Origin: Polaribacter sp. | GTDB taxonomy: Bacteria > Bacteroidota > Bacteroidia > Flavobacteriales > Flavobacteriaceae | Reading direction: 5' to 3' | Length of the DNA: 64,000 bases | Assembly: GCF_051251875.1 (NCBI RefSeq) | Contig: NZ_JBPOGL010000013.1 | Span: 14,683-78,682, forward strand | Part shown: piece by piece, positions 29,865 through 56,122 of the stretch | How positions within the stretch are numbered: position 1 is the stretch's first letter | Layout: each line of letters opens with the position of its first letter | Translations under genes and position numbers: made by a program | Notes under the pieces: model-generated | What the model was told of the DNA's origin: nothing | What the model saw: only the letters and a program-made list of their open reading frames with translations | Databases searched by the model: none

Positions 29865-32800
29865 ATGACTTCTAAAGGTTTCTTAAATTTATTTAAAAAG
29901 AGTCTTGATCTTTTTCAGTCAAAACATGCTGTAATCGACAGATCGGGTTCATTAACCTACTTAGAGGTAGAAAATTTGTCAAACATAATTTGCCACAACC
30001 TATCAACAAATAAAAATACAGCAAATGGTACTATTGTTTTATTTCTGCCAAGGACTTCAGCTACTATCGTTTCAATACTTGGAATATGGAAGGCTGACTG
30101 TATTTACTTACCGATTGATCCAACTTTTCCGCAAGAAAGAATAAATTACATCATTCAAGATTCAAAAGCATCAGCTATCATCTCAACACCTGAATTTTCT
30201 GAAAAACTAGAACATTTAGCTATCGATATACTTCATTTTGATGACCTTGTCGAGGAAAGAAATCAAAACATTTCACCTTTATTTCAAGAGGAGAAGAGTG
30301 CCTATAAAATATACACTTCAGGATCTACTGGGCTACCAAAAGGAGTAAATATTAGTCATGCTTCTTTTTCTAATCTTCTGCAGGCCATGCAAGAGATTCT
30401 AGATCTTCAGGAATCAGATCAATTTTATGCCCTAACCACAATCTCCTTTGATATTTCTCTACTTGAATTGTTTCTACCTCTTACTTTAGGTGCTACCGTA
30501 GTAATAGCGGGGAATTTATCTAGAGATAATCCTCAAATGATGATTGAGGATCTACATACGTTTAATATATCGGCAATGCAGGCGACACCTGCACAATGGC
30601 AACTATTATTGGATGTAGGTTGGTCTGGAAACTCTAAATTGAAAGCAATATCCGGAGGGGAAAACCTTACTACTAAACTTGCTAATAGGCTCTTTACTAA
30701 AGTAGGGAAACTATGGAATATGTATGGCCCAACAGAAACAACAATCTGGTCCACTTATTACATCGTTGATGATGCAATACTTGATTCTAAAAACTCTAAA
30801 CGCTCAATTCCTATTGGATATCCAATACGCAAAACCTCTTTGTATGTTTTGGACGATGCGGGGAATAACGTAAGTGCGGATCAACTAGGAGAGTTATTTA
30901 TTGGTGGAGATGGTGTTGCTATTGGTTACATAAATGATCTTGAGAAAACCGCAGAGAGATTTGTAACAATTACAAGAAGTGGAACAGAACAACGCGTATA
31001 TAAAACAGGTGATATTGTAAAAATACTGCCCAATGGTGCCCTTGAGTTCATTCAACGAAATGACCTTCAGGTTAAGTTAAACGGTCACCGTATTGAATTA
31101 AAAGAAATAGAATCAGTAATTCGATCCTCTAACATCGTTAAAGAGGTTGTTGTTAAACCCATCACACCTTTGGAAGAAACGACCTATTTAACCGCTTTCT
31201 ATACAATTAATCAAGAATCAAAGAGTGCAAAAACACTGGGTATTAATCAGATTCGATCACTGTATGACAATATATACTCCTATAATAAGGCTGATGAACC
31301 AGTTATAGGATGGATCAACAGCTATACAAATCAACCATTTACTGCTGAAGAAATGGAGTCGTTCTACCAAAACACATATCATCGAGTTTCCAATTATATT
31401 AGCGGCGACATTCTTGAAATTGGTTTTGGTGAAGGTCATCTTATGAAAAAAATGATTCCATCATGTAATAATTATACAGGGATTGAGCTTTCTAAAAATA
31501 CATCTGAACATATAAACAAAAACCTTTTTAAGAATTATAAAAACAAAGTGCAATTACTATATGGTGAACCGGTAGAAGTTATTCAAAACCTGGATCAATT
31601 TGACTTTATCCTCATTAATTCAGTTGCTCAATACTTTCCTTCCATAAGCTACTTAAAGGAGTTATTGATTTCACTATGTAATAAAATTGGTGAGGGATTC
31701 ATATTCATTGGAGATGTTAGAAATCCGAGGCTTCAAAAATCATTTTACAGATCCCTTTTATCACAAAGAAATAACGGTACTTCTTCCAGTGATGATGAGG
31801 AAATAATTGAACAGATGTTTCAATCGGAAACCGAACTTTTTATTGACTATTTGGAATTCCAAAACCTATTGAACATAGAAAAGGTTGCAGACATTCGGTT
31901 CTTAACCAAGGATAGTCCATTTGATACTGAAATGGATCTCTTTAGGTATGATGTTTTGATCCATATCTCTTCCAATTCTAAAAAACCATCGCCAGAGCAT
32001 AGCATTGACTACATTGACAGTTATCCTGATCAATTAACTAATAAATTAAACGCTGGAAAACACTCAATTGTAAAGCTTTCAAATGTTCCCGATATTCGAT
32101 TGATCCCTTTTTCAGAAAAGCAACCAGGCTCTTCAATAATCACGTATGGAATTCCAAATTGGAAAGCTATCGCAGATCAATACAATTATAGGTTAGAAAT
32201 TCAGCCATCAAGTACTTCGAACAATAATCTTGACCTTTATTTTTATACACCCTGTATTGAGGCTATAAACCTACCAAGTTCTACTCCTCCGCGAGAGAAT
32301 TTTACCCCACAAACCGATTCGACTAAAAACATTAAGAATGCAGAGATTTTTGAAGAAATTCTTCGTGAAACTCTTCGAGAAAAATTACCTGCATATATGA
32401 TTCCAGAGCGGTATGTTATGTTAGATGAATTTCCTCTGACACACAACTGGAAGATTGATCGAGACCGTTTAACAGTTTCGGATAAAAAGGTAGAGCGTAA
32501 AAATGCTAGTGTAGCTCCAAAAAATGAACGCGAGAAGTTATTGGTCGAAATTTGGAAGGAGGTTCTGGGTATGGATGACCTTGGAATTACAGACAATTTC
32601 TTTTCACTTGGTGGAAGCAGTATTAAGGCATTACTAATCATTGCTAAGGTATATAAACAACATGGATTGACTTTACACGTTCAGGATTTCTTCCAATTCC
32701 CGATCATTGAAAAAATGGTGCAAGCACTTACTCAAGATGCAAAAGAAATTGTACTGGTTGATGAAAGCAGTTATTACCCTGTTTCACCAATGGAAGAGAG

Positions 32801-35800
32801 CATTTGGCTTCTATGCAATGACGCGGATGCAAGTCGCGCTTACAATATCGTTTATATATCCGATTTTTTATCGGAGCCTGACTTTCAATTGGTTGAAAAA
32901 ACGATTCTGTGTCTTATAAATAAACATGAATCTCTACGAACAGCTTATTCATTTTCGGATGAACTCAATGGTGTTCAACAGTATATTTCCCCCACAGACA
33001 ATACTCAATTCAGCCTAAATGTTGACGATAAGTTGCATTCCAATGCTAAGCTTACTCAATTCATCATTGATGAAAAAAACTACTTATTCGATTTAAGTAA
33101 TCCTTCACTTTTCAGGTGCTTCGTCAAAAAGAAGGAAAACGGAAAATGGGTGTTAATTTGGAATATTCATCACATAATTACTGATGGTTGGTCAATGAAT
33201 ATGCTTTTTGATGAGTTTGAAGAGATTTACAAACAGTTAGCTGAACTACGTTACATTCCTGATCATTCTAAAATTCAGAACAAAGACCATTCGATTTGGT
33301 ACAGGAAGCTGCAAGAGTCTGATTCTACAAAGAAGATGCTAAACTATTGGCGTGATCAACTAAGTGATTACGTTCCTTTTGAACTTACTTCTGATCGTCC
33401 ACGAGCAAAACTTAAGACCTATAATGGGGATCAACTTACTGTTCCTTTCACAGCTGATTTAGCCAAAATTCAGACTGATCTTGCCAGAAAAGAAAAAACG
33501 AGTGAATATACAATTGCGCTTTCTGCTTTTTTCATACTACTCAAACGATACACACAACAATCAGATTTACTGGTTGGGACACCAATAACAACGCGTACTC
33601 ATAGCCAATTGCAATCCATCGCAGGAATGCTGCTCAATACTGTGCCGATTCGTTCAAAGCTATCTGAAGAAAAAACATTCAATGAGGTACTACTCTCAAC
33701 TGAAAGGTCCGTTCAAAATGCTAGAGAAAATGGAGTTCTTGCCTTTAACAAAGTAGTTTCTGAGCTTGTAGATTCACCAGATTTAGCAAGAAATCCTTTG
33801 TTTGATATAATGTTCGTCTGGGAAGAATATTTTTCGGAGGAAAAAACCGAACGAAATGTAATTGCCAAACAGAAACTCACTACAAGTCATTCAAGTTTTG
33901 TGAAATTTGACCTTACGATTCTTATTCAAAAGGAAGAAGGTATTCCTAAGCTAACTCTTGAGTATAACACCGATTTGTTTGACAAATGGAGAATACAACA
34001 AATAGCCCAACACTTTTTCGCGATACTCCAAGCTTCAATTAAACAGGCTGATGCTCCGATTAAAAACATAAATGTACCTGTTCGACCATTACCTGTTCCC
34101 GCACAAGAAACACAACATCCATTGTCAACGTTGATGCATAGATTTGAACAACAAGTAGTTTCAAATCCAAATAATACGGCTGTAATTTTTTGTAACAACG
34201 CACTGACCTACGAAACACTTAATCGTAAAGCAAACCAACTAGCGAATCATTTAATTAGCTCATATCAAATTAAACCCGGAGATGTCATTGCTTGCTTTAT
34301 GGATCGCTCTGACAATTATATAGTAACTCTTTTAGGGATTCTTAAAACAGGAGCATGCTATATTCCATTAGCGTCTGATCTTCCAACAGAAAGAATTCAA
34401 CACATTCTTAACGAATCTGAGACTTCTGTTGTAATTACCTCTTCTGAAATGCACTTCCCTGTTTCAGACGTGGCTGTTCTTCTACTTGATGGTGAGTCTC
34501 TCAATTCGTCTGTTGAAAATCCTAAGATTCAACAAGTACCTGAGTCATTGGCTTATATAATTTATACTTCTGGTACAAGTGGGCAACCAAAGGGGGTTAT
34601 GATTTCTCATTCTGCCATTGTCAGCTATTGCAATCACCTTACTGAACAACATCCAATAAGTAAAAAAGACTGCATGGGAATGATCACCTCCCCTACTTTT
34701 GACTTATCTTACACAGCTCTTTGGCCTGCACTATTGACGGGTGCTTCAGTATGCGTTTTACCCGAAATTAAATCTCTAAACCATGAAGAGATTTCGAATT
34801 TCTTTAGGTCAATGCCCATCAATATTCTGAAATTAACACCAACGATTCTTCAATCTTTTCTGGACTTAAACATCGAGTTTCATCCAAATCTCCGTAGGTT
34901 GTTTGTTGGAGGTGAAGTTCTCCCCATGAGATTGGTTGAACAATTTCAAAAGAGATTTAATTCGGTTGAAATAGTCAATCATTACGGACCAACAGAAACG
35001 ACTGTTGGAGTTATCACTCATGCGTTAAAACCGGGTGAAATATGTCCGACTGCAACAGTACCTATAGGTAAACCTTTACCGGGTATCGAAGTCTTCGTCT
35101 TTGATGCTGAACTACATCATCGACCGATTGGATTTTCAGGTGAATTGTACATCGCTGGTCAACAACTTTCCAAGGGATATTTATGTCAGCCTGAAGTAAC
35201 AGCCAAAAGCTTTATTAAGCATCCAAAGAGTGGGGCGGTACTTTATAAAACGGGAGACATTGTACAACAAATGCCTGATGGAACGATTCTATATATAGGA
35301 AGAAAAGATCATCAGGTAAAGGTCAATGGAATTCGGGTTGAGATTGAGGAAATCATACATCAAATTGGTAGTATTTCAGAAATTAAAAATGTAGCGATTT
35401 CCTTTGTTGATAATTCAATCAATGCATATATAGTTACAACCAGGGACGTTGAATTATCTGAGCTAAGGAATCAACTTGCACTGAAGCTACCTGAATACAT
35501 GATTCCAACTCATTTTTATAGTGTAGATTCAATTCCTGTAACTCCAAATGGCAAAACAGATTTTGAAAAACTCAAAGAGAATCATAAACAAGCCGTAGAG
35601 TTTCAAAATATTGAGCGGGGTGCTTTACACGAGAAAATTTTACAATTATTCAAGGAAGTTCTGAACCGCGATGATATCCAATATTCAGATAGCTTTTTTA
35701 ATTCAGGAGGACACAGTTTAAAAGCCATGCAATTGTGCTTTCTCATTCAATCTGAGTGTAATTTATTCCTTGAACTCAATTCAATTTTCAGGTACCCAAC

Positions 35801-37190
35801 AGTTGACCAACTCACCGTATATCTAAACGAGAAAAAAACGCTGGGTGGCATACCAAAAATTAAGGACACAGAATTATATAAAACTTCTCCTCAACAACAG
35901 AGTATTTGGAGTTTATCTCAAACAACGGAGGGAAATCAAGCTTATAATGCGACTAAGGTGTATAAGCTAACAGGAGCTGTTGATGCTTTAAGTTTGGAGC
36001 AATGCTTTAAGCTTCTTCTGAAAAAGCATACATCTTTGCGTACTGCAATTATTGCAGAGCAGGGAGGGTTATTTCAGAGAATTCTTCCCGTTTCAACATC
36101 TGCATGGAAATACATTGACCAGCGATCTCAACCAGCAACGGACACTCAAATAAATTTCCTAATTCGAAAAACACTAAATTTCTCATTTAATCTTGAGGAA
36201 GGTTCTTTGTTTAAAGCCATTTTTGTGGAGTTTGATAAAGAAGTTTCATTTCTGCTTTTCTACATGCATCATATTTGTATTGATAAGTGGTCTTTCGACT
36301 TATTCTTTAACAATCTTCTTGAAGCCTATGTCACAGGAGGAGAAAAGCCATCTGAATCAGAACTTTCCTATGGAGATTATACTCATTGGTTAAGAACCGA
36401 AATTCATTCAGATGAGAATAGTTCCAAAAGTTACTGGAACCAACAATTATCCGGTTCATTGCCCTATTTGGAACTCCCTTTCTCAGGTAATCGTTCTGAC
36501 CACAAATCATTTCTGGGAAAAACGAGTGTTTTGATTTTACCTGATGTAGATTCTAAAAAGGTTCAACAACTTGCAGTTCAGCACCAGGTAAGTCCATTTT
36601 CAATTTACTATTCACTGACATGTCTATTGCTGTACACTGAAACAAGAGTAACAGACATTATTACTGGAACTCATTTTCTTGGGCGCTCCAGAAGTGACTT
36701 AGAGAAAATCGTTGGCATGTTTGTAAACACTCTACCAATTCGCGTTCAAATAAATAAAGAGCTGTCAATTGTGGAACTAGCAAAACAAGTGTACCATAAT
36801 ATCGTTTCGGGACAAATACATGAAACCTATCCATTTGCTCAGATTGTGAGCGATCTAGGGCTTAAACCTGAGATAAATAAAAACCCATTGTTTGGAATTA
36901 CGGTAGCTTACAATCAGATAACTGTTCCCCAAACGAGCGACTTGTTACCGTTTCAAATCGAACCTATTGAATCTGACACCTATGGTGGTTCAAGTAAATT
37001 CGATATATCCTTTACGTTTAATGAACATACGTTGAACAATGCTGTTCATTTTTCCATTGAATACAACGCATCACTTTATAATGATGAACAAATAGCCAAT
37101 CTTTCGAAATTGTTTTTACAGCTCCTCGATGAAGCAACTTTTTATCCTGACTTAAAAATTTCAACACTGAAATCGCCATCACAGGATTAA
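29865..37190 (+). CDS. NRPS, A(MT-interrupted)-T-C-A-T-C
   Basis: YTSGSTGLPKG/YGPTETT A cores; LEIGFGEG and INSVAQYFPS N-methyltransferase motifs; T GGSS and GGHS; C HHIITDG and terminal HHICIDK; no TE. Confidence 0.93.
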   Translation: MTSKGFLNLFKKSLDLFQSKHAVIDRSGSLTYLEVENLSNIICHNLSTNKNTANGTIVLFLPRTSATIVSILGIWKADCIYLPIDPTFPQERINYIIQDSKASAIISTPEFSEKLEHLAIDILHFDDLVEERNQNISPLFQEEKSAYKIYTSGSTGLPKGVNISHASFSNLLQAMQEILDLQESDQFYALTTISFDISLLELFLPLTLGATVVIAGNLSRDNPQMMIEDLHTFNISAMQATPAQWQLLLDVGWSGNSKLKAISGGENLTTKLANRLFTKVGKLWNMYGPTETTIWSTYYIVDDAILDSKNSKRSIPIGYPIRKTSLYVLDDAGNNVSADQLGELFIGGDGVAIGYINDLEKTAERFVTITRSGTEQRVYKTGDIVKILPNGALEFIQRNDLQVKLNGHRIELKEIESVIRSSNIVKEVVVKPITPLEETTYLTAFYTINQESKSAKTLGINQIRSLYDNIYSYNKADEPVIGWINSYTNQPFTAEEMESFYQNTYHRVSNYISGDILEIGFGEGHLMKKMIPSCNNYTGIELSKNTSEHINKNLFKNYKNKVQLLYGEPVEVIQNLDQFDFILINSVAQYFPSISYLKELLISLCNKIGEGFIFIGDVRNPRLQKSFYRSLLSQRNNGTSSSDDEEIIEQMFQSETELFIDYLEFQNLLNIEKVADIRFLTKDSPFDTEMDLFRYDVLIHISSNSKKPSPEHSIDYIDSYPDQLTNKLNAGKHSIVKLSNVPDIRLIPFSEKQPGSSIITYGIPNWKAIADQYNYRLEIQPSSTSNNNLDLYFYTPCIEAINLPSSTPPRENFTPQTDSTKNIKNAEIFEEILRETLREKLPAYMIPERYVMLDEFPLTHNWKIDRDRLTVSDKKVERKNASVAPKNEREKLLVEIWKEVLGMDDLGITDNFFSLGGSSIKALLIIAKVYKQHGLTLHVQDFFQFPIIEKMVQALTQDAKEIVLVDESSYYPVSPMEESIWLLCNDADASRAYNIVYISDFLSEPDFQLVEKTILCLINKHESLRTAYSFSDELNGVQQYISPTDNTQFSLNVDDKLHSNAKLTQFIIDEKNYLFDLSNPSLFRCFVKKKENGKWVLIWNIHHIITDGWSMNMLFDEFEEIYKQLAELRYIPDHSKIQNKDHSIWYRKLQESDSTKKMLNYWRDQLSDYVPFELTSDRPRAKLKTYNGDQLTVPFTADLAKIQTDLARKEKTSEYTIALSAFFILLKRYTQQSDLLVGTPITTRTHSQLQSIAGMLLNTVPIRSKLSEEKTFNEVLLSTERSVQNARENGVLAFNKVVSELVDSPDLARNPLFDIMFVWEEYFSEEKTERNVIAKQKLTTSHSSFVKFDLTILIQKEEGIPKLTLEYNTDLFDKWRIQQIAQHFFAILQASIKQADAPIKNINVPVRPLPVPAQETQHPLSTLMHRFEQQVVSNPNNTAVIFCNNALTYETLNRKANQLANHLISSYQIKPGDVIACFMDRSDNYIVTLLGILKTGACYIPLASDLPTERIQHILNESETSVVITSSEMHFPVSDVAVLLLDGESLNSSVENPKIQQVPESLAYIIYTSGTSGQPKGVMISHSAIVSYCNHLTEQHPISKKDCMGMITSPTFDLSYTALWPALLTGASVCVLPEIKSLNHEEISNFFRSMPINILKLTPTILQSFLDLNIEFHPNLRRLFVGGEVLPMRLVEQFQKRFNSVEIVNHYGPTETTVGVITHALKPGEICPTATVPIGKPLPGIEVFVFDAELHHRPIGFSGELYIAGQQLSKGYLCQPEVTAKSFIKHPKSGAVLYKTGDIVQQMPDGTILYIGRKDHQVKVNGIRVEIEEIIHQIGSISEIKNVAISFVDNSINAYIVTTRDVELSELRNQLALKLPEYMIPTHFYSVDSIPVTPNGKTDFEKLKENHKQAVEFQNIERGALHEKILQLFKEVLNRDDIQYSDSFFNSGGHSLKAMQLCFLIQSECNLFLELNSIFRYPTVDQLTVYLNEKKTLGGIPKIKDTELYKTSPQQQSIWSLSQTTEGNQAYNATKVYKLTGAVDALSLEQCFKLLLKKHTSLRTAIIAEQGGLFQRILPVSTSAWKYIDQRSQPATDTQINFLIRKTLNFSFNLEEGSLFKAIFVEFDKEVSFLLFYMHHICIDKWSFDLFFNNLLEAYVTGGEKPSESELSYGDYTHWLRTEIHSDENSSKSYWNQQLSGSLPYLELPFSGNRSDHKSFLGKTSVLILPDVDSKKVQQLAVQHQVSPFSIYYSLTCLLLYTETRVTDIITGTHFLGRSRSDLEKIVGMFVNTLPIRVQINKELSIVELAKQVYHNIVSGQIHETYPFAQIVSDLGLKPEINKNPLFGITVAYNQITVPQTSDLLPFQIEPIESDTYGGSSKFDISFTFNEHTLNNAVHFSIEYNASLYNDEQIANLSKLFLQLLDEATFYPDLKISTLKSPSQD

Positions 37191-40163
37191 AAACTGTTCT
37201 ATTTTTGACCAGTTCGATTTCCAGGATTCAATCAATTGATCAATTACAATATTGTCAATTTTCGCTTCATCCCAATAGACAAACAACTGTATTTCTTCCC
37301 TCTGTTCTTTAAATACAAATCCAACACCATTAAGGGACGAACGTGCTTCAAAGGGGGGAAGTAAATCTGATAAATCATCCAATTCTCCGGATCTTGGAGT
37401 AATATCAGGTATAAAGTTGAAATAGACCGGAAAGTCGGACTCAAGTTGATGCCCTAACTGTTCTTTTTGCTGAAGGAACTCATACCAAGCGTCTTTCGAT
37501 TTCATTAATGAATGAAATTGTTCAACACGCGCAATAACTGCAAATGGGTCACTATCATACTTGATCAGAAAAGGGAAATGATAGGCGAGCCATCCTACAG
37601 TTGCAGTATCATCCATACTTTCCATCTCTCCTCTTCCCGATAAAACAATCCGTGACAAGGCAGATTTCAACTCAAAAACTTCCATTACAGAAAGAGCTGA
37701 AGTAGTCAGTAGATAATTAAACGTTTCTTTGATAGCTATTCCCTTGAATGGGTTTGGGAATGAAATCATTTGAACTGCTTCTCCTTCAGTTTTTTTTACT
37801 TTAATTGATGAGGGAATAGCAACATCGTAATCTGATAGCAATGTGTTGCAATACTCTGTAGATCTTTCCGCATCCTCACTTGTTATTTGTTCTAACCAAT
37901 CGCAATAATCGGGTGAAGGTGGCAATATATTCTCTTCACATCTCAACAGATATTCCAGATTATTACGCAGCACTCTAAAGGAAATTCCATCGATTATAAA
38001 ATGATTGCACGCTAAATAAATAATTGTCTTTTCTCCATTGGGGTAAACTACAATACGCGAAAACACGCCTTCAAATGGATCAATCTCTTTCCTGTAAGTC
38101 TCTAGATTCTCAACAAACTCTTTGCTCGAAGTGTAATCACTTCCTGCGTTTATTAGTGTAAGTTGTGGCCGTTTATCAAATACTATTTCCTGTGATTCAA
38201 GATCCAATTCGAGTGCAGAAAACACGCGATAATGTTCTATCATTTTACTCAAGGCTATCGTCACAGCATCTATCTGATGACTTGCTTCCAGGAGTACTTC
38301 TAAATTGTTCGAAGAAATCTCCATTCTAGACTGTTCAATGAGCATTACTCTTTGGGAATAGTGCATCTTAACCTTACGGTAATCAAATACATGAAGATGG
38401 GCCTGATCCTTCTTCATTTTCTCCTTGATCAACATTCCCATCTGACCAATATTTTCATTGCTAATCAGGTCATTAACCGTAACGTTAACCGACCATTTCT
38501 CAAAGATTTTCAATTTCAGTAACACGACATTAATAGAGTTCCCTCCCAATGCGAAAAAGTTTGAACTTTCAGATGGAACAATCCCTTCGATTGATACTAC
38601 CTCTTTCCAAATATTAAAAAGATCCATTTGAAATTCTCCAGAGAGTTTCTGGTCTTCTTTTTGTGATTGTGGAAGTTTAAACAAACGAGCGATTGACTTT
38701 CTATCTACTTTTCCGGTTGTTCCCAAAGGAACACTATCAACCCGCATAAACCTCAAGGGAATCATATATTTTGGCAACTTAACAGCGATTGTTTCAGTTA
38801 ACTCTCTGATAAAAGCACCTTCGTCTTGTGGATCTTCGTAGGTTTTTAAACAAGTTACCAATTGATTTCCTTCCACAACGCAATAGGCTTCCTGAATTCC
38901 ATTACACGCAGAAAGAACTTGCTCAATTTCAATTAACTCAATTCTGTAACCGTTAACTTTTACTTGCAAATCCCGACGCTCAACAAACTGAACACTTTGA
39001 TCATCCTTTCTTCGAACAAGATCCCCTGTGCGAAATAGACGTAATTGTTTTCCGTTGAGGTTGATATCAACAATAGCTTTTTGCGTTAATTCATCTTGCC
39101 CAACATACCCTTTCATCAACCCAGGTGAACTTATGAAAACCTCGCCTGTTTCATCAATTTTAACAGGCACGAATTGATCATTAAGTACGTAATATTCCGT
39201 TCCATCAATGGGGTTCCCAATGAGTACAGGAATGTCTCTTTCTACTTTTGTTGCAGTTGCCCAAACAGTTGTTTCTGTTGGGCCGTAAAGATTCCATAAT
39301 TCTACTTTGCCCAAATCCAGCAATTCATTTTTCATTGCTTCTGTCATTGCTTCACCTCCACAAAACAAACGGATACTGTGATCTATTTTCCACCCATTGT
39401 TGAGCATTTGCCGATAAAACGAAGGTGTTCCTTGAATTAAAGTAACCTTGCACTTATCAATTAGCTGTGTGAGATTATCAGGGTTACCAACTTCATGTTT
39501 GGCAGCGAGTACAATTGTACTTCCTAGTATTAATGGAATGAACAGTTCAACAACATGCGGATCAAATGCAAAAGACGTTTGTGCCAAGAACACATCCCTG
39601 GATGTAAACTTCATCTGCCCCCTAAAGGCATTCATGAAATAATTAAGACCATCTTTTCGAATTGCAATTCCTTTTGGTTTACCAGTAGTTCCTGACGTAT
39701 AAATAGTATAAACTATTTCATCCGCTGCTTCAAATGGAGTATCCTTATTTCCACTGTGCAACTCTCCTTTTTGCATTAAATCACTTACAGAATGAGTCTG
39801 GACATTCATCAATTGGAATTCCTTATTCTCATCATTTGCGATTACCTGACGTATCCCCATATCTTCGAGAATAAACATCATTCGATCTTTGGGAGAATCA
39901 GGGGGAATGAACACATAAGCTCTATTCAATGACATTAGCGCAATGCTTGCAATGAGAAATTCAGGTGAACGTTCGAGGTGAATCCCAATGGTTTCATTTT
40001 TGTCGAATTGAAGAGTCGTAAGTCCTCTTCGCATCTCCGAAATTTCTTTTTCTAGATCACCATATGAAATTTCTTTTCCATCACAAATAACTGCTACTGA
40101 ATTTTGAATGTTCAATGCATGATTCTGCAACACTTCATATATTTCTAGAGTTGGTTCATTCAT
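37179..40163 (-). CDS. NRPS, A-T-C/E-like
   Basis: YTSGTTGKPKG, YGPTETT, TGKVDR; T FFALGGNS; terminal domain NHFIIDG...TVGW. Confidence 0.9.
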   Translation of the reverse strand: MNEPTLEIYEVLQNHALNIQNSVAVICDGKEISYGDLEKEISEMRRGLTTLQFDKNETIGIHLERSPEFLIASIALMSLNRAYVFIPPDSPKDRMMFILEDMGIRQVIANDENKEFQLMNVQTHSVSDLMQKGELHSGNKDTPFEAADEIVYTIYTSGTTGKPKGIAIRKDGLNYFMNAFRGQMKFTSRDVFLAQTSFAFDPHVVELFIPLILGSTIVLAAKHEVGNPDNLTQLIDKCKVTLIQGTPSFYRQMLNNGWKIDHSIRLFCGGEAMTEAMKNELLDLGKVELWNLYGPTETTVWATATKVERDIPVLIGNPIDGTEYYVLNDQFVPVKIDETGEVFISSPGLMKGYVGQDELTQKAIVDINLNGKQLRLFRTGDLVRRKDDQSVQFVERRDLQVKVNGYRIELIEIEQVLSACNGIQEAYCVVEGNQLVTCLKTYEDPQDEGAFIRELTETIAVKLPKYMIPLRFMRVDSVPLGTTGKVDRKSIARLFKLPQSQKEDQKLSGEFQMDLFNIWKEVVSIEGIVPSESSNFFALGGNSINVVLLKLKIFEKWSVNVTVNDLISNENIGQMGMLIKEKMKKDQAHLHVFDYRKVKMHYSQRVMLIEQSRMEISSNNLEVLLEASHQIDAVTIALSKMIEHYRVFSALELDLESQEIVFDKRPQLTLINAGSDYTSSKEFVENLETYRKEIDPFEGVFSRIVVYPNGEKTIIYLACNHFIIDGISFRVLRNNLEYLLRCEENILPPSPDYCDWLEQITSEDAERSTEYCNTLLSDYDVAIPSSIKVKKTEGEAVQMISFPNPFKGIAIKETFNYLLTTSALSVMEVFELKSALSRIVLSGRGEMESMDDTATVGWLAYHFPFLIKYDSDPFAVIARVEQFHSLMKSKDAWYEFLQQKEQLGHQLESDFPVYFNFIPDITPRSGELDDLSDLLPPFEARSSLNGVGFVFKEQREEIQLFVYWDEAKIDNIVIDQLIESWKSNWSKIEQFLIL

Positions 40164-41320
40164 AGATTGTTCACCTTGTAAATTGGAAAATAAGAATCAA
40201 TTGTGCCCTTTTTATAATCCTGGTTTAAAGTCAATATCTCGTCCCATTCATAAACATGATTCGTATCAATAACAGGCATCCAATCATTAGAAATGGCGTA
40301 CTCCATTGCTTCTATAGCATCGCTATATCTAGCATAATGGGTATGTATATGTTGATGCCTTTGAATACTTTCGATTGCTCTAAAATAGGACAGCTTCATA
40401 CCTTCTTTCCAACCTGAAGTCGTTATCACGCCTTGTCTGGAAAGTGCTTTTAATGTTGCTCTATACACAGGCAATCCGATATTATCAATGAAGATTGCAA
40501 CTTGACGGTTATTTGTTGCCGCATTAATGTTATTGAGAAAGATTTTCTCGCTCTTAATATAGCATTCCCGATAATTTGAATCCCTTTCATATTTATCAGG
40601 ATTAAAGTTCAAATCTGCAAATTCATTTCGATCTAGCGAATTGATTCCCAAATCAGCCAAATTTGTAAATCGCTTTTCTTTAGAGGTAATCATTAAAGTC
40701 TTAAAACCTTTTTCTTTGGCAAGTAATAACTCTGCGAATCCTACTCCACCTCCCCAAGAGGCTACCGTCATTTCAGATAAAGACACATCTGTCATTTGTG
40801 ACCTCCAGCACTTGTAACTGATTTTCCAATTTGACCAGGCCGTTATATATCTCAGTGAAAAGGCAGCCCATTGTTTCAATGAAAAATTACTTCGTGAAGG
40901 TATTCTAATTAAAGTATTCGAAGGAAGTACAGTTCTTTTTGCGAGTATACCCATTGTTCCCTTAGCATCATATCCAAGAATTTTTTTCGGAAACCCATAT
41001 TCGTCTGCTACTGCATTACAGAACACCAATGCATAATCTCCTTGTTTAAGATGGGATTGTGGGCTACCTGTTTTGAGGATTCTCACAACCCCAGCATTCC
41101 CAAGAACAATTTCCTTTTCTTTTCTCTGTAAACATATATCTACTGGGTCTCTCATAATTGCATGATGCATATTACCTTCCCAACATCCATAAATTGGTTC
41201 AACTAATATCGTCTTTATTGATAAGGTGGGAAGTTCTATTTTCTTTAAAATTAATTCACCTGGTACTCTATGTATTTTACCTTGTTCTAAAACCCATGCA
41301 TCTGTTAATTCTCTACTCAT
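40160..41320 (-). CDS. MDR-family NAD(P)H oxidoreductase, divergent crotonyl-CoA carboxylase/reductase-like
   Basis: WGGGVG Rossmann motif; LGYD and HTHYARYSDAIEA align by eye with CCR WGFE and GSHFANYREAWEA. Confidence 0.65.
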   Translation of the reverse strand: MSRELTDAWVLEQGKIHRVPGELILKKIELPTLSIKTILVEPIYGCWEGNMHHAIMRDPVDICLQRKEKEIVLGNAGVVRILKTGSPQSHLKQGDYALVFCNAVADEYGFPKKILGYDAKGTMGILAKRTVLPSNTLIRIPSRSNFSLKQWAAFSLRYITAWSNWKISYKCWRSQMTDVSLSEMTVASWGGGVGFAELLLAKEKGFKTLMITSKEKRFTNLADLGINSLDRNEFADLNFNPDKYERDSNYRECYIKSEKIFLNNINAATNNRQVAIFIDNIGLPVYRATLKALSRQGVITTSGWKEGMKLSYFRAIESIQRHQHIHTHYARYSDAIEAMEYAISNDWMPVIDTNHVYEWDEILTLNQDYKKGTIDSYFPIYKVNNL

Positions 41321-41330
41321 ACCTAATTGT

Positions 41331-42074
41331 TTAAAGATTAATTACAAATATTTTGCATAAATAATTGATCTTGATTAATCTATTTTTTTTAAATTTTATA
41401 AAAAGCTGTTCGATACTATCTCGAAATTCTTTTTTATGAACTTGGATAAAATATGAATTAGATTCAAGCCTTCCTACAAATCCATCGATGTCTAATATCT
41501 GACTATTAGCTATTTCTTTATACTCCACTGATTTAGACATAAATTTCCTTTTTAGTATATCTGCATCATACAAAACTTCCTTATTTATACTATATAAAGG
41601 AAAAAGTCGTAAAAGTATTTCTTCAAATTCCTGATTAAATGCATCCTCAGTTTTCTCTCTGTCATTCCAACAAATAAGAATTTTCCCACTGGGTTTAAGT
41701 ATTCTTTTTGCTTCAATAATAGATTTTGGATTATCACACCAATGAAAAGATTGCCCAAATGAAACCATATCCATTGAATCATTTGGTAGTCCTGTTGATT
41801 CCGAATTACTATTTATAGCATGAAAAGTATTGAATTTTTCATATTTATGAATCATCAATTTAACCATTTTTTCATTGGGTTCAATGGCGAATACGATGAA
41901 TCCCTGATCTAAAAATCGTTCCGATAAACGTCCTGTTCCTGCTCCTATATCAGCTATTTTTTTTACTGTAGAATCTCTTTCATTATTTATTAAAGAAACA
42001 ATTCCTGTGGGATATTCTGGTCTGAATTTATCGTACAGAATTTCCTTTTTATCATATAATTTTGTTGTATCCAT
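41331..42074 (-). CDS. Class I SAM-dependent methyltransferase
   Basis: YDKFRPEYP, ADIGAGTG, AIEPN, QSFHW motifs. Confidence 0.9.
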   Translation of the reverse strand: MDTTKLYDKKEILYDKFRPEYPTGIVSLINNERDSTVKKIADIGAGTGRLSERFLDQGFIVFAIEPNEKMVKLMIHKYEKFNTFHAINSNSESTGLPNDSMDMVSFGQSFHWCDNPKSIIEAKRILKPSGKILICWNDREKTEDAFNQEFEEILLRLFPLYSINKEVLYDADILKRKFMSKSVEYKEIANSQILDIDGFVGRLESNSYFIQVHKKEFRDSIEQLFIKFKKNRLIKINYLCKIFVINL

Positions 42075-42077
42075 TTT

Positions 42078-42872
42078 CTAACCTTTAATGCGAATTCTTC
42101 TCGTTGTTTTGGGGTATTGGGAATCTAGATCGAGAGCTTTATGCATTAGTGAATAATTATCCCATATAAGTAAGTCATTCTTTTCCCACTTGTGATAATA
42201 CAAATACTTTTTTTCTGTTGCGAAGTCATACAAATACTTGAGTAATTCGTCACTCTCCTCTTTAGGAATACCATCAAGCCCCTTTAGCCAATTTTCATTT
42301 AAGTACAAGGCTTTAATTCCAGATATTGGATGAATTTTAACTAATGGATGTTTTAAGTTATGTAAGCTATTGACGATTTCCGTTTCTGGCTCAAGTCCCA
42401 TTTCTATTAAGTCATCTACATAAATTTGCCTACATGGATAATTCCCTTCCAAATGTTCAATTCTTAATTTCATATCTTCAGGGATGTCGGAATAGGCTTG
42501 AGATAGATTACAAAATACGGTTTCTCCTCCCACCAATGGTGCTTCCTCACAAGACAATAAGGTAATTCTTGAAGGCTCTTTTGTTTGAGGTCCATCAGAA
42601 TGCCAGTACATGCCTCCTCCATTCATTCCTTTCCCCTCTACATTTGATTGCAACCTGATTGTCTCAAAGCCCAGAGCTTGATATTTGTAAGGATAAGCAA
42701 CTTCTGGTACTCCAAAATAATTAGAAAACGAATCGAAACCTGCAAAATCCAAGTTGGCATTTCTTAAAACCAAAAGTTTGTTCTTAAGTAGTAATTTCCT
42801 AAGTTTATCTTTCGTGTATTTATGAAATTCTAATATTTCAAGCACAAAATCATCTGAATTATTTATAATCAT
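42078..42872 (-). CDS. TauD/TfdA-family Fe(II)/2OG dioxygenase
   Basis: WHSDG (HxD), GGETVF, HPLVKIHP.SG.KALY, WDN..LMH, RRI. Confidence 0.92.
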   Translation of the reverse strand: MIINNSDDFVLEILEFHKYTKDKLRKLLLKNKLLVLRNANLDFAGFDSFSNYFGVPEVAYPYKYQALGFETIRLQSNVEGKGMNGGGMYWHSDGPQTKEPSRITLLSCEEAPLVGGETVFCNLSQAYSDIPEDMKLRIEHLEGNYPCRQIYVDDLIEMGLEPETEIVNSLHNLKHPLVKIHPISGIKALYLNENWLKGLDGIPKEESDELLKYLYDFATEKKYLYYHKWEKNDLLIWDNYSLMHKALDLDSQYPKTTRRIRIKG

Positions 42873-42874
42873 AT

Positions 42875-45800
42875 TTAAATATTTATTTCTTCTAAAATTG
42901 AATGGTACAATTTCTTAATATATTCAACTTTAAAACGTTTTTCGTGATACCAAAAATTAAATGATAAACCTCCTTCAAGTTCATTAACCACGAGGTGTAT
43001 CCCTGGAATTCGTTTTATAGATGAAGGAGGACATTCAACAAATTCTTCTTCTAGAGTAGGGCCTAAAATCTCAATTATTTTGACATTTTTAGATTTTTTC
43101 TCCTTTTTATAATTCGTAAAATTGATACCTATATCCGTAAAATATGTATCCATCGGAAACCCAGAAAAAAGACCTACGTGTTTAGTCATATCAGATACAG
43201 GATAGTGTGACCTCATATTATATTGGATGACTAAATGATTTAGACGTAAAGCAGTATTTAAAATGGGTTCATCCCTCAAATCAATTTTCAAAGGGAAAGG
43301 TGCCGTAAATGGACCTATGGTATTGGCATATTTTTCTTCAGCTCTTCCACTTGAGATTACCGCAATTAAAACTTCTCTAAGCGATTTTATTTTGCCTATG
43401 GCTCGTGCATATGCTGAAAAGATAATTGAAAAAAGGGAGACTCCCTCTTTTATAGAAACTAGGCTTAATTGATTATATTTTTCTATCGATAAACTTTGGC
43501 TCCAACGAACTGATTTTTGTGGTTGAGTTATTTTTAACGAATGCTTTTCAGAAAGCAATGTTGATTCAGTAGTTGTACTAAAAACACCTTGAAAAAAGGA
43601 ACGGTCATTTTTTATATCATTCTGACAATATTTTTGCTGCCAGTCTATATAATCTTCATATTGTTTGTAATTAGGTAATATGTGTTTTCCAATACCTAGT
43701 TCATTTTCATAGGTCTTTTTTAACTCTTCTGAAAAAGTTGTCAGAGAGACTCCGTCAAAATCAATATGTTGTAGACACAGAAAAAGAACGAACCTATTTT
43801 CTTTCAGTTTAAAAATTTTTATTTCCCAAGGAATGCTGATTTTTCCAGAACGTGTTACTTTATACCTCTCTTCACAAAATCTTTTAAGTACTATTTGTTT
43901 TTCTTCTAGATTCAACTTGCTAATATTTGTAAAAAGTGCATTATCATCAAAAATAGGCATCTCATTTACATTCAATATCTTAACACAATCTTCACCGTAA
44001 TAATACCTTAGGGAATTATGACGACTTATAATTTTTCTTAAAGCTATTCGTAATTTATTTTCATCAAGTTTATAATTAAATATAATTGGAACTACTCGAT
44101 ATCCATATCCTTTTTGAATAAGCTGAACCCATCTTTCTTGTTGGAAAGAAAGTTTCTCTAGTTGACCGTTTATGACTTTTTCATTTTTGTTTTCTTTTTC
44201 TATTTCCTGACTCGTTTGAAGTTTTTCAGTTAACAAGTTAGTAATGCCTTTAATTGTTGGATTATCAAAAATAAATGTAACACTTATCTCTACTTCAAAA
44301 ATACGTTTTAATTTATTTCGAACTTGAATGCTCGTAAGCGAATCTACACCATATTCAAAAACACTTTTATTTTCATCAAGTTCAAAAGATTCGTTATGCA
44401 AATATCCAATAACAGAATTAAAAACTTCTTTCACTTTTAAAATTACAAACTGATTTTGTTCATTTATTGATAAATCGACAAATTGTTGCTTTATTGATTT
44501 TTTCTTTTCATTTTCCGTAACTATTTTCGGAATAAATGTTTCATATCGATTCTTCTGTCGGTTAGGAATAGTTTCTAAATAATTGGACCAATTCATAGGA
44601 ATTACAATTAATTGATTCCAATCCATATTTATCACATTTCCAATAACTCTTTTACCTTCATTGTTTCCAATTAAATTAAATCCTAATGATTTTAGATGTT
44701 GTTGAATTTCTAATTTCCCTTTCAATTCACCAGCTTCAGACCAAGCCCCCCAGTTTATATTATGAGAAGGTAGATGCTGGCTTTTTCTATAACTGCTAAG
44801 TGCATCCATAAATGCATTCGCGCCCCCATGATTACTTTGCCCATGATTACCAATAATTGAAACGATTGACGAAAAAGTTACAAAGTATTTTAATTCCTTA
44901 AAGTATTTAATCGAATTATTATGCAAAACTATCGTTCCAAGAACCTTAGGAATAAAACAAGTTTCTATTGTCTTAATACTCTGGTTTAGAATTGTTGCAT
45001 CTTCTATTGCTCCTGCTGTTTGAAATATCCCTAAAACTGGTAATTCTTTGTTGGATATACTTTCGAAAAAACTAGATACTTCCTCTTCTTTAGAACAATC
45101 TATTTTATAATAGTTAATTTCTGTATTAGGATATTGATGTTTAAAGTTTTTCAAGTAAGTATTTCTATCTTGATTCAATGAACTTCTACCAAATAATATA
45201 ATTTGCTGAACACCATGTTCTCCTAAAAATTCAGCAGTAATTTTCCCTAGTCCACCAAAGCCTCCTGAAATTATATATACCCCATTTTCATCCAATTTAC
45301 TTTGTTTGCTTTTTGGGATTTTATTTTTTGACTTAAGATATGGTAAATAAACCCTATTTTCCCTGATAGCAATTTCTTGCCTATTTAACAATATGGCAAA
45401 TACCTTTTCAAAAGTATCTTTATTAATGGTTTCCCCTTTACTAAAATCTAAAAAACCAAAATTAATTTCAGTAATCTCCAAACTCAAGGAACGCAATACC
45501 CCCTGAATACATCTTCCAATAAAATTACAGACAATATCATCATCCATTACTTTTTGTGCAGATGCTGTTATTTGGTAAAAATTAATATTATCGTATTTAA
45601 TCTGAATGAGTTTTTGGAAAAAAGTAATGATTTGATGAATTTGATGTTTTAGTTTTTCATAAAAAGAAGAATTAAAGGACAAATCAGTTTCTAATTCAGA
45701 AACATATACAAACATCAAATTTTCTTTTCCTCCAATTATCTTATCTAAGAAAACAATTTCATTGTTGATATCAGAAATATTAAAACATGTATAATTTGCA

Positions 45801-48800
45801 AATGCATTTTCCAAAAATTGTCGAGAATGATTTGTTAGTGGTTTATCAATTAAGACTATAACCTGATATGACAAAGAATCAATTCCATGGAATTCAGTTA
45901 TATTACTATCATTTCGTTCCCAAATTATTTGACAATATGCATCTTTCATATTATCAGATTCCGTTGAATTAACTAAAACGAAATTTCCCTTTTCTGGAGG
46001 AGCAATCCAATATTTCTGTTTAGCAAATTTGTATGGAATAGGGGATTTTTTCTTTTCATCAAAAGAATTAGAATTCATTGATTTCCAATTTATGTTTACA
46101 CCACTCTCATATAAAGCTGAAATACTATTATAAAATTCCTTTTCTTGAAGTAATATATTACGTTTTGATGAACGAGAAAATGTAGGGATTAGTTTAAGTC
46201 CTGAATCGGGAAAACTCGCTTCAATTAACCCAAGTAGTACAGGACTAGGACCTATCTCCAAAAATGTCGTAACCCCCTTATTTAAAAGATGTTCGATTCC
46301 ATTATAAAACAATACAGTTTCACGAGTATGCCTACTCCAATATTCAGGTCTTATAAAATCTTCTTTCTGTCCTGATACACCTGAAAGATTAGATACAATT
46401 GGGATTTTTGGAATATTATAATCAATCTGTCTCAGAACTTCCATAAAGGGTATCTTCATAGCATCCATTAATGGGGAATGTCCTGCTCTATCAATAATTA
46501 ACTCTTTCCATTTTATTCCTTCTTCGCTACACTTTTTTGATAATTCTTCAATCCCTACCTTATCTCCTGATGCAACAGTACTCACAATACCATTTATCGC
46601 AGCAATGGAAATAGATATTTCATATTGTTCTATCCATTTTTCAACTTTATCTGTTCCTGTAAGGATGGATATCATTCTTCCTTCTTCCGAAACAAATTCA
46701 TCCATAAGTTTTCCTCGTTCCAAACTTAGCCATAGACCTTCTTCAAGCGAAAAAACTTCGGCAACACAAGCTGCTACATACTCTCCTGTACTATGGCCGA
46801 TTAATACGTCTGGAATGATACCCAATGATAAGTAACATTGTGTTAATGCATATTCAAAAGAAAACACAGCAACCTGAGTGTATTTAATTTGGTGCATCAA
46901 GCTTTTGTCTTTTTCAGAAAAAAGCAAATCAAGTAATGATACTTTATCGATTTTTTGTAAATATTGATCACATTTTATGATTACCTCTCGAAACACTTCA
47001 TTTGATTCAAAAAGATATTTCCCCATAGAAGAATATTGAACTCCTTGTCCTGTATAAACAAATGCTAATTTTCTTTTCTGAACAGGAGTTGTATTTATAA
47101 AATCATTTTCTTCTATGATTTTTTGTTCCAATAATATTTGCGTTTTGGAAGTCAATTCCTCTAATGATTTGGCAGAAATAAGTGTCCGGTTAGAATACAA
47201 TGGTTTTAGCATAATCTGACTAAACGCCAAATCACTAATAGATTTACAATTCCCTTTTTGCAAATAGTCCATTAATCCTCTTAATTGATTTTCAAGCCCT
47301 TCAACACTTGGGGCACTTATAGGAATGCATTCTACTTTCTGATTTAAATTAATAGTTCGTTCCTTTGGATGATCATGTTCTTCCAAAATAGCATGAGCAT
47401 TTGTACCACCTATTCCAAAAGAACTAACTGCTGCTCTTCTTGAAGAGTTTGTTTCCCATATTTTAGATGTACCATTATTAATATAAAAAGGGGAATCTGA
47501 AAGATTCATTCTTTCATTCGCTTGTTCGAAATTAATTTGAGGAGGAATGGTTTCATAGTAAAGGCAAAGTGCTGTTTTAATAAACCCAACAACTCCAGAT
47601 GCCCAAGAAAGATGTCCAATATTTGCTTTTACGCTGCCTAAAGCACAAAACGAAAGTTGATCTGTATACTTCCTATATACTTTTGATAAAGAACGGATTT
47701 CAAGTGGGTCACCAAGAATTGTACCTGTACCATGTGCCTCAACATAACCAATTGTATCAGGGTTAATTTTAGCTGCTCGAATAGACTTGAGGATAACATC
47801 CTGTTGCCCAAAAGAACTTGGTGTAATGAATCCTGCTTTCTCACCTCCATCATTATTTATAGCAGAACCCAATAAAACAGAATAAATGCGGTCACCATCT
47901 TTGATTGCTTTATCATAATCTTTCAAAACAACCATTCCAATACCACTTCCAAAGACTGTTCCTGTGGCATTCTTATCAAATGGACGACACTGACCATTTT
48001 TTGAAAAAACCATATCTGGCTGGTATAGGTATCCACATTTTTGAGGAACAGTAATATTTACTCCACCTGCAATAGCTGCTTCACATTCCCCTTTCAAAAT
48101 ACTTTCTGCTGCCATATGGATTGCTACTAATGAAGTAGAGCAAGCAGTTTGTACTGTAACAGCTGGTCCTTTTAAATTTAATTTAAATGCTATTCTAGTT
48201 GCCAGATAGTCTTTATCATTAGCAACCATCAATTGCAGTTCGTTTGATGATTCCAGAAAAGTACGATTTTGATGCATTCCAGTTGCTGGATGAACATTAT
48301 TTAAAAGATAAGTACTGAAACCACAACCTGCAAAAACACCAACTCTGCTAATAGATTGCTTACCATAATATCCAGCATTTTCTAATGCTTGATAGGCACA
48401 TTGCAATGCTAGTCTATGTTGGGGATCCATTATTGAAGCTTCCCTAGCACTAAATCCAAAAAAATCCGCATCAAAATATTCAATATCGTCAAGGATTCCT
48501 GCATAATGCATATAGTCTTCGTCTTCTCTAAGTTGAATATTCCCTGACTCTATATCTCCCTTTGGAATTGACTGAACAGATAATTTTCCTCCCTTAATAT
48601 TTTTCCAAAAATTTTCTAAATCAGCTGCTCCAGGAAGATTACAAGCCATTCCTACAATGGCTATTCTCTTTATTTTTTCTTTATTTTCTAAAGGTGCATC
48701 TTTTTCTTCTTCATTATTTAACAAATCTCCTTGAAGTAAATTGGCAATCCCTCTTATAGTTGGATATTCAAATAATGAAATAATATCTAATGATTTTTCT

Positions 48801-55843: not shown

Positions 55844-56122
55844 TTATTTTTTTATTTTTTTAATTTCAGCTTCTACCTCTGATCTTTTGTATAGAACTCT
55901 ACCAGAAATTTGGTATTTCGTAAGAGTCCCATCCTTAGTAATGTTATGAACACTAGAAGTTTTCATACGTATCATTTCTGCAACTTCTTCTCTTTTCAGA
56001 TATTTATTTGGTTCTTTGGGTTGAAAATGTTGTTTTAATTCTTCGAATTTCTTATCGATGTAATTAAAGATTGGAGAGTTGTGTTCTTCTGTGGTTATAC
56101 CCACTAATTGTACCTGTTTCAT
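55844..56122 (-). CDS. Excisionase-like HTH_17 protein (start corrected to ATG 56122)
   Basis: YLKREEVAEMIRMKTSSVHN...GRVLYKRSEVE; TAATTTTG -7 box at 56172-56179. Confidence 0.85.
   Translation of the reverse strand: MKQVQLVGITTEEHNSPIFNYIDKKFEELKQHFQPKEPNKYLKREEVAEMIRMKTSSVHNITKDGTLTKYQISGRVLYKRSEVEAEIKKIKK

Follow-up and report, generated by a model that had tools for sequence, protein, structure and literature searches.

Background

Of the steps in nonribosomal peptide synthetase (NRPS) and polyketide synthase (PKS) assembly lines, chain release is the hardest to predict, and clusters that lack a thioesterase (TE) are often mis-annotated or dismissed as incomplete. In microcystin biosynthesis McyE, which ends in a condensation (C) domain, hands over to McyA, which starts with an adenylation (A) domain and an N-methyltransferase (A-NMT), and the chain is released by the TE of McyC; in salinosporamide biosynthesis SalA, a PKS ending in a C domain, works together with SalB (A and thiolation, T), a homologue of crotonyl-CoA carboxylase/reductase (CCR) serves the unusual extender and SalC takes care of release. 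Siderophore synthetases contain an 'interface' domain, i.e. a domain of the fold shared by C and epimerisation (E) domains that serves trans-acting oxygenases. LgrA (F-A-T-C-A(Gly)-T-E) has an inactive E domain after its glycine module (PMC10510592), and the X domain of glycopeptide synthetases, which carries HRxxxDD, recruits P450s (PMC11546977). Stand-alone TEs of the penicillin-binding protein (PBP) type act in trans on chains that end in a D-residue or Gly, and WolJ accepts a C-terminal Gly (PMC11735501). Here we compare with these systems a cluster in 64,000 nucleotides (nt) of Polaribacter sp. DNA (contig NZ_JBPOGL010000013.1 of assembly GCF_051251875.1, positions 14,683 to 78,682; the whole stretch is called the window), which encodes two synthetases, NRPS1 and NRPS2, and an NRPS-PKS hybrid.

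Pfam matches and a domain tree bear out what an initial annotation had read from the letters, namely that each of the three proteins begins with an A domain and ends in a domain of the C superfamily. The three terminal domains are not one phenomenon: the phylogeny puts them in three different groups, one of them an E-related domain at the end of NRPS2 that we call E-star. We consider the chances about evenly balanced that the cluster forms one TE-less NRPS-PKS line, in which the three terminal domains would have three roles and the chain would be released by a pair of enzymes, a serine hydrolase of the beta-lactamase fold and an AspH-like oxygenase. If E-star and this pair do form a release system, this would be a new off-loading logic for genome mining and NRPS engineering. 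The interesting parts of the cluster are the E-star family and its oxygenase and hydrolase partners, while the Lys variant found in NRPS1 and the splitting of modules between C and A are ordinary. More broadly, the analysis defines a rare cross-phylum cluster family around a proline-loading hybrid that ends in a C domain of a QH type.

Judged by analogy, E-star and its partners are related to known kinds, i.e. the inactive E domain of LgrA, the SurE-type release in trans and the C|A splits of McyE and SalA. With LgrA, NRPS2 shares a C-terminal E-type domain that comes after a glycine module and is not expected to epimerise; LgrA, however, passes its chain to LgrB, which starts with a C domain, whereas a genome-wide C-superfamily search yields no protein that begins with one in this genome, and E-star is a conserved sister clade with invariant His, Asp and Arg and not a recently decayed E domain. 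The SurE-type systems (surugamide, wollamide/desotamide and ulleungmycin) resemble the cluster in that they have no TE in cis, a last module that ends in an E-type domain and a stand-alone enzyme of the beta-lactamase/PBP fold, but the E-type domain of the window lacks the catalytic Glu, and its hydrolase resembles family VIII esterases, is partnered with the AspH-like oxygenase and is fused to it in one relative. As in the McyE and SalA systems, a C-ended PKS or hybrid subunit would acylate the aminoacyl-T of an A-first protein; there, however, the release step is a dedicated one, and the QHxxFDG domain of our hybrid lies on a separate deep branch. The X domain is likewise a C/E-fold domain that stands close to a module's end and serves trans-acting oxygenases and not elongation (PMC11546977), but E-star keeps the catalytic His, and the X domain ranks 48th among its Foldseek matches, behind E and C domains.

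NRPS2 ends in a separate family of E-related domains

C-superfamily domains (712) were extracted from 150 proteins recovered by an exhaustive HMMER search, from this cluster and from the related loci, and the 680 that are full-length were used for the tree. Labels were assigned by context: E by the presence of EGHGRE, DCL if located after an E domain, N-terminal, or T-preceded. The tree is one without curated subtype references and without reference sequences of the terminal condensation-like (CT) type, and most of the relatives are metagenomic fragments. A-domain codes were read by hand from motif positions, and substrates were called from them with a code table. The features of NRPS2 are:

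37179..40163, minus strand: NRPS2, 994 amino acids (aa), A-T-E-star (Pfam, translation)
38709-40118, minus strand: A domain, code DPVQFGLVWK, Gly-like
38439-38618, minus strand: T domain, GGNSI
37194..38414, minus strand: E-star domain, with NHFIIDG at 37986-38006 (residue 720) and LSGRG at 37629-37643
37572-37601, minus strand: E-star motif TVGWLAYHFP (TVGW at 37590-37601)
37407-37424, minus strand: E-star motif YFNFIP

Current hidden Markov models (HMMs) barely detect the terminal domain: next to A and T, Pfam gives a weak Condensation match of 26.5 bits, below the cut-off of 30.6. In the tree it falls into an exclusive clade (17-18 domains, support 0.999), which is the sister group of the 246-member canonical E clade and is not nested in it. 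Nearly all of those 246 have the Glu of EGHGRE, which is absent from all 18 E-star domains; in NRPS2 the aligned segment reads VLSGRG or LSGRGE. E-star retains xHxxxD, TVGW..HHYP, GYGWLRY and YFNYLP, and seven-sequence alignments of the family show His131, Asp135 and a new residue, Arg248, as invariant. An HMM of the family that was built without the window sequence gives the window domain 171 bits, against 70 bits with a canonical-E HMM; for the canonical E domains found in 400 same-phylum genomes, this pair of models gives the reverse result. The best solved match at the sequence level is the E domain of TycB3, and the AlphaFold model (pLDDT 74.6, pTM 0.73) has the E domains of TycB3, TycA, PvdL and GrsA as its first Foldseek matches. 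To judge from these sequence comparisons, E-star is a separate, conserved E-related family and not a canonical E domain.

E-star is the last domain in all full-length family members that were examined, most of which are about 1000 aa long and read A-T-E-star; like the fungal CT-type domains it occupies the C-terminal position in place of a TE. Most of the members read share the A code DP(V/L)QLGVVWK, which resembles DILQLGLIWK, the code for glycine, and with a glycine-like substrate epimerisation would be pointless.

The family is sparsely represented in the sequences searched. A word-based homologue search with the E-star region returned the query itself and nothing else, and two scans of genome contigs yielded zero and then one hit, a stand-alone E-like open reading frame (ORF) of 435 aa from an Actinomycetota metagenome-assembled genome with a canonical-E-like score. 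A metagenome scan added a single short locus with a true E-star (L026), and the 400 same-phylum genomes contain canonical E domains and no second E-star. In the consulted parts of the review and data-mining literature we found no description of an E-like subtype without the Glu, nor of the interface domain. One genus of the same phylum (g86) has conserved stand-alone E-like ORFs of 413-441 aa (L036 and six further matches), too short to include A or T; L036, the one that was scored, is canonical-E-like (240 bits).

Related loci

The loci that share the hybrid, E-star or both have the following contents:

L023: hybrid, methyltransferase, two P450s, beta-lactamase-fold protein (PF00144), A-T-E-star, then a housekeeping prolyl-tRNA synthetase (ProRS)
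L028: hybrid, methyltransferase, TauD, phosphopantetheinyl transferase (PPTase), PhyH, A-T-E-star
L029/L030: A-T-E-star, 637-aa fusion of AspH and beta-lactamase-fold protein, hybrid, methyltransferase
L031: NRPS ending in T, C-A-T-E-star, TauD, AspH, beta-lactamase-fold protein, split hybrid
P0010 contig: TauD, A-T-E-star, PhyH, beta-lactamase-fold protein (PF00144)
L040 (Photorhabdus tasmaniensis, JBHFKZ010000001.1): A-T and KS-AT-KR-C, then type II TE and class A beta-lactamase; no E-star
L038 (closest relative): hybrid, A-first NRPS downstream, class A beta-lactamase; no E-star
L039 (Staphylococcus gallinarum, JAMRJP010000009.1): hybrid homologue, separate A and T proteins, PF00144 gene; no E-star

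No TE or reductase (R) domain was called in L023, L028, L029 and L031. The N-terminal C domain of the E-star protein in L031 was considered as a lipo-initiation starter C and rejected as such: its best solved matches are of the elongation type (Txo1, Txo2, fuscachelin), with no starter-C structure among them. Between the upstream NRPS and the PPTase of L031 lies a gene for an 870-aa protein with the N-terminal domain of LanB-type dehydratases (L031:5260-7872). Since L039 and L040 place hybrids with a terminal QH-type C in cultured, named bacteria of other phyla, the product class is possibly easier to approach there.

NRPS1 ends in a condensation domain of the LCL type

The features of NRPS1 are:

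29865..37190, plus strand: NRPS1, 2441 aa (Pfam, translation)
31347-31802, plus strand: methyltransferase embedded in the first A domain (A1), whose code is DILQIGMIWK, Gly-type
32610-32630, plus strand: first T domain (T1), Ser motif
32718..34097, plus strand: internal C domain, LCL clade, canonical HHIITDG at 33168-33188
34143-35555, plus strand: second A domain (A2), code DLTKFGHVGK, Asp-type
35706-35726, plus strand: second T domain (T2)
35823..37187, plus strand: terminal C domain, HHICIDK at 36267-36287 (residue 2135), K codon AAG

In Pfam terms NRPS1 reads A(MT)-T-C-A-T-C, where MT denotes the methyltransferase (Condensation 538.9 bits for the two C domains), and the codes suggest N-methyl-Gly and Asp as the substrates of its A domains, which lie within 29886-35555. 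In another related locus the methyltransferase is N-terminal within the loading module that precedes the ketosynthase (KS), which reads MT-A-T (L024:4956-8372), instead of embedded in A.

The terminal C domain pairs with the internal C domain of the same protein (support 0.955) inside a clade of 126 T-preceded LCL domains (0.933). Its HHICIDK keeps both His residues and the Asp and has Lys where Gly is usual; at this last motif position the clade has Gly 111 times, Ala 4, Arg 3 and Lys 2 (15 non-Gly members), and K is found in two of all 680 C/E domains. The best solved match is the C6 domain of TycC (PDB 2JGP; E 6e-40, residues 10-446 of 455), which is matched over its full length, with the differences that NRPS1 has HHxxxDK and not HHxxxDG and no A-T in cis. 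On its placement it is an otherwise ordinary LCL condensation domain, of which HHxxxDK would be a rare minor variant. Because NRPS1 ends 18 residues past this domain, in a linker stub, with no downstream A-T, the acceptor must come in trans.

Proteins that end in a C-type domain, and subunit splits between C and A, are common; in the LCL clade 16 of the 126 members are the last domain of their protein. The proposal that the modules of this cluster are divided in this way is supported by the linker stub and by the other protein ends: all three synthetases start within about 10-16 residues of their A domain, at its first helix, and stop where the C-type domain ends, which places the cut in the C-A linker. 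The motifs cited in the initial annotation (HHICIDK, NHFIIDG, the internal HHIITDG, LSGRG and TVGW) were all found by translation and motif look-up, HHICIDK exactly at the position given there, and the QHIDFDG motif of the hybrid is present as well, at 43751-43771, about 9 nt off the stated 43760-43780.

The hybrid ends in a QH-type condensation domain

The hybrid has the Pfam architecture A-T-KS-AT-KR-ACP-C (AT, acyltransferase; KR, ketoreductase; ACP, acyl carrier protein):

42875..50470, minus strand: hybrid NRPS-PKS, 2531 aa (Pfam, translation)
49016-50443, minus strand: A domain, Pro-type code DVQFIAQVVK
48734-48931, minus strand: T domain
47525-48670, minus strand: KS domain
46160-47062, minus strand: AT domain
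44735-45283, minus strand: KR domain
44189-44428, minus strand: ACP domain
42881..44209, minus strand: terminal C domain, QHIDFDG at 43751-43771 (residue 2234)

Only two of the 680 C/E domains have Q at the first His position, namely the terminal domain of this hybrid and that of its L023 orthologue; they group with a support of 1.0 and otherwise stand apart from the rest of the C superfamily on a deep branch. The orthologues that were aligned (L023, L028 and L029) all retain QH(I/L)xFDG and the later motifs, and the identity of the domain to its counterparts is 31-43% for L023, L028, L029, L038 and L039 and 30% for L040. A targeted search retrieved about 19 homologues of the hybrid at E <= 1e-50, either as A-T-KS-AT-KR-ACP-C (about 2440-2610 aa) or as a split KS-AT-KR-ACP-C (about 1810-1990 aa), and to judge by these protein lengths the QH-type C is always terminal. 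A search for Rosetta-stone proteins showed that none of the about 19 homologues has its QH-type C fused to a following A-T.

Most hybrids of which the A domain was read carry the Pro-type code DVQF(I/Y)(A/S)(H/Q)VVK, and codes of the DVQF..(H/Q)VVK type were read in L029, L038 and L040; those of L039 and L031 deviate. The window cluster thus belongs to the family defined by a Pro-hybrid with a terminal QH-type C, in which a methyltransferase lies in or adjoins each cluster. The conservation of the terminal domain across the about 19 orthologous hybrids indicates clear purifying selection and is what one would expect of a domain that forms an amide with an acceptor in trans; the terminal domains of NRPS1 and of the hybrid both look like working, amide-forming C domains that would use such an acceptor. 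With its KR and the stand-alone methyltransferase, and taking the hand-read codes as they are, the hybrid would give a dolaproine-like Pro-ketide unit. The corresponding analogy with dolastatin (Dap and its O-methyl group) was weighed as a loose parallel and is not claimed.

A conserved hydrolase and oxygenase in a cluster without thioesterase

The TE inventory was made for the whole assembly (3.92 Mb, 97% complete). A profile search for the PF00975 thioesterase gave no match above the cut-off, the only hit reaching 21.5 bits on a different contig; PF07993 (R domain) has no match on this contig and matches ORFs of housekeeping size (290-480 aa) on other contigs; and Pfam finds neither a TE nor an R domain in the three synthetases. 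Four C-superfamily domains were found in the genome and no more, each of them inside this cluster. The claim that the cluster has no thioesterase therefore stands for the TE and R families, but it overlooked a conserved serine hydrolase and its partner:

50509..51714, minus strand: serine hydrolase of the beta-lactamase fold, similar to family VIII esterases, 401 aa (profile matches)
51711..52451, minus strand: 2-oxoglutarate (2OG) oxygenase of the AspH/LpxO/OlsC family, with a 4-nt overlap between its stop and the hydrolase start

The hydrolase is a stand-alone protein with an intact catalytic set of a serine enzyme: SxxK at 51469-51480 (Ser79-x-x-Lys82), Tyr185 and HxG at 50665-50673 (His348-x-Gly) are invariant in four orthologues. 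It has no signal peptide, the esterase-type profile match covers positions 4-360 of 388, and its best matches in the Protein Data Bank are family VIII carboxylesterases and EstG. It was also considered as a PBP thioesterase of the SurE type and rejected, as SurE and Ulm16 are not among the best 60 of its 167 matches and 401 aa is too short for an additional C-terminal lipocalin-like domain. That domain is a requirement of the SurE-type enzymes (PMC11735501).

In one metagenomic relative the AspH-like oxygenase and the hydrolase are fused into one protein of 637 aa (L029:4473-6386, also L030:3902-5815), whose oxygenase and hydrolase parts are 41% and 40% identical to the window proteins, and L031 has orthologues of both at 40-42% identity. 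Together with the missing signal peptide, the fusion points to a hydrolase that is cytoplasmic and integrated in the pathway. Its orthologues follow E-star and not the hybrid: L029 and L031 have one, and the stretches of L038 and L040 that were read do not. The AspH/hydrolase pair would be the best candidate for the off-loading step that we could find by comparing loci.

Assembly order

The condensing domains other than E-star number one less than the carriers in three architectures: four (the internal C, the terminal C of NRPS1, the KS and the QH-type C) for five carriers in this cluster, two (the KS and the QH-type C) for three carriers in the two-protein loci L023 and L029, and again carriers minus one in L031, where the E-star protein has an LCL-like N-terminal C of its own that is fed by an NRPS ending in T. 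This makes E-star surplus and probably non-elongating, and the NRPS2 module is most simply placed last; NRPS2 is probably the last protein of the line. It had been suggested that each terminal C accepts the next A-T, which is supported for NRPS1 and the hybrid (by the LCL clade and the conserved orthologues, respectively) and would not apply to the surplus E-star, and also that at least one terminal domain has another function, for which NRPS2, with its distinct family and its place outside the count, is the case in point.

The order NRPS1, hybrid, NRPS2 put forward at the same time is reasonably supported as to its last member, whereas the comparative loci L040, L038 and L031 lean to the hybrid as the starter of the chain. 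Around the PKS of L040, the 25.8 kb that were read contain no called gene for another carrier protein, which fits release by aminolysis with a soluble or trans acceptor. In this cluster family the hybrid therefore seems to use its A-T for loading, with the QH-type C passing the chain to an outside acceptor, and this supports the proposed C|A split for the hybrid. Two orders of the window proteins are possible. The order NRPS1, hybrid, NRPS2 would leave the QH-type C facing A-T-E-star, as at the ancestral junction, and the order hybrid, NRPS1, NRPS2 would parallel L038 and L031 and would again offer the QH-type C a Gly acceptor (A1 of NRPS1).

Proposed mechanism and alternatives

In the mechanism that we favour, a five-carrier assembly line would be split at C|A linkers into three proteins. 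The hybrid would load proline, add one (alkyl)malonate unit and reduce the beta-keto group, and its QHxxFDG terminal C would transfer the chain to an amine acceptor supplied in trans; the terminal C of NRPS1 (LCL, Gly-to-Lys) would acylate the aminoacyl-T of another protein. Without elongating, E-star would hold or process the finished chain, linked to NRPS2 as a glycyl thioester, and the co-conserved AspH-like 2OG oxygenase and cytoplasmic beta-lactamase-fold serine hydrolase would release it. A bolder version, in which E-star would be a new functional class that offloads chains in a TE-less line together with the AspH-type oxygenase and the esterase-fold hydrolase, we regard as doubtful. In one concrete form of it the tethered C-terminal glycine would be hydroxylated at C-alpha, after which hydrolysis or collapse would follow; peptidylglycine amidation and the glycine-sacrifice route of MtaG/MelG are parallels. 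If true, it would be a previously undescribed release mechanism, common to the cross-phylum Pro-ketide clusters, and the NRPS counterpart of peptidylglycine amidation.

Several observations weigh against the favoured mechanism. The terminal C of the L031 PKS, which enters the count, is deduced from its length of 1991 aa and from homologues. Gene order is inconsistent, with A-T-E-star upstream of the hybrid in L024, L029 and L031 and downstream in three loci, and therefore lends no support to NRPS2 being last. The assignment of glycine leans on a code table and hand-mapped positions, and one E-star subclade (P0011) carries an Ala-type code. The invariant His and Asp of E-star suggest a catalytic role and not mere docking, and the hydrolase, closest by sequence to the family VIII esterases, is not an enzyme of the SurE type. 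Finally, the sister clusters without E-star (L038 and L040) have class A beta-lactamases instead, which makes a role in immunity or maturation possible for beta-lactamase-fold genes. These class A genes (PF13354; L038:20247-21089 and L040:17776-18642) may mean that products of the cluster family are beta-lactamase-sensitive or that the fold has been recruited repeatedly.

One alternative, which we think unlikely, is that E-star itself is the release catalyst, comparable to fungal CT domains, its conserved His cyclising the chain or transferring it to a small nucleophile, while the beta-lactamase-fold protein and AspH would serve tailoring or self-protection. It would account for E-star always being the last domain, for the invariance of His131/Asp135 and for short contigs on which A-T-E-star is accompanied by a methyltransferase and a PPTase only, and the PF13354 genes of the E-star-less sister clusters hint at the immunity role that it implies. 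To our knowledge, however, no E-type domain releases chains, and both the AspH-hydrolase fusion without a signal peptide and the tracking of E-star by the orthologous hydrolase argue for a hydrolase that belongs to the pathway. Less likely again is that E-star is a trans-acting condensation domain, so that NRPS2 would act early or initiate, with its glycine going to an A-T in either the hybrid or NRPS1, and release would fall to the QHxxFDG or the HHxxxDK domain. The upstream position of A-T-E-star relative to the A-T/KS genes in the three loci named above would suit this, as would the abundance of C-terminal C-type domains in the LCL clade and the probable aminolysis by the QH-type C of L040; but E-star is surplus in all three counted architectures and derives from E domains, for which we know of no case of peptide-bond formation, in L040 the hybrid plainly uses its A-T for loading, and in L031 the E-star protein has its own N-terminal C that is fed by another NRPS, so that E-star is not on an initiation module there.

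The in-line position of the E-star module in L031, behind an elongation-type C, also counts against a further alternative, to which we give slightly less credit still: NRPS2, AspH and the hydrolase would form an off-line cassette for a building block, of the BpsD/OxyD/Bhp type, that loads its substrate, hydroxylates it while tethered and hydrolyses it off. E-star would then be an interface that recruits the oxygenase, and the free product would be the soluble acceptor with which a terminal C releases the chain. The combination of a free-standing A-T(-X), an oxygenase and a hydrolase makes up a classical cassette. In L040 the acceptors of the QH-type C may be soluble, and X domains are catalytically altered C-type domains that serve as recruitment platforms (PMC11546977), but a Gly-like substrate has little to hydroxylate except C-alpha. 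A cluster that is wholly or partly non-functional, with terminal domains whose non-canonical features reflect decay, seems very improbable. Its location on a mobile element, its being missing from 40 relatives and the low Pfam score of the NRPS2 terminal domain would agree with decay, but all ORFs are intact, the genes are tightly packed with overlapping stop and start codons, and both unusual domains belong to families whose motifs are conserved across phyla.

Genomic setting of the cluster

The remaining genes of the cluster are:

40160..41320, minus strand: CCR-like enzyme of the zinc alcohol dehydrogenase (ADH) family, stop overlapping the NRPS2 start
41331..42074, minus strand: stand-alone class I methyltransferase, which adjoins or lies near the hybrid in all related loci
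42078..42872, minus strand: Fe(II)/2OG oxygenase of the TauD family, with 44% identity to L038 and 36% to L028
52459..53190, minus strand: Sfp-type PPTase, first gene of the minus-strand operon

They form a tightly packed minus-strand operon that runs from the PPTase through the AspH-like oxygenase, the beta-lactamase-fold protein, the hybrid, the TauD-family oxygenase, the methyltransferase and the CCR-like enzyme to NRPS2. NRPS1, on the plus strand, converges on NRPS2, and the 3' ends of the two genes overlap by 12 nt. The CCR-like enzyme shares 46% identity with its L038 equivalent and 41% with the one of L039.

Genes of mobile elements bracket the cluster (27132-29306 and 54509-57337), i.e. 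those for a Mutator-family transposase, a protein with a BT4734-like N-terminal domain, DUF3987 and RteC. The NRPS2 orthologue and the cluster were not found in 40 related genomes, and the G+C content of the synthetase genes is 32-38%, compared to 26-30% in the flanks. On the basis of the flanking mobile genes, the G+C contrast and the missing orthologue, the cluster was probably acquired horizontally, as cargo of a conjugative transposon of the Bacteroidota type.

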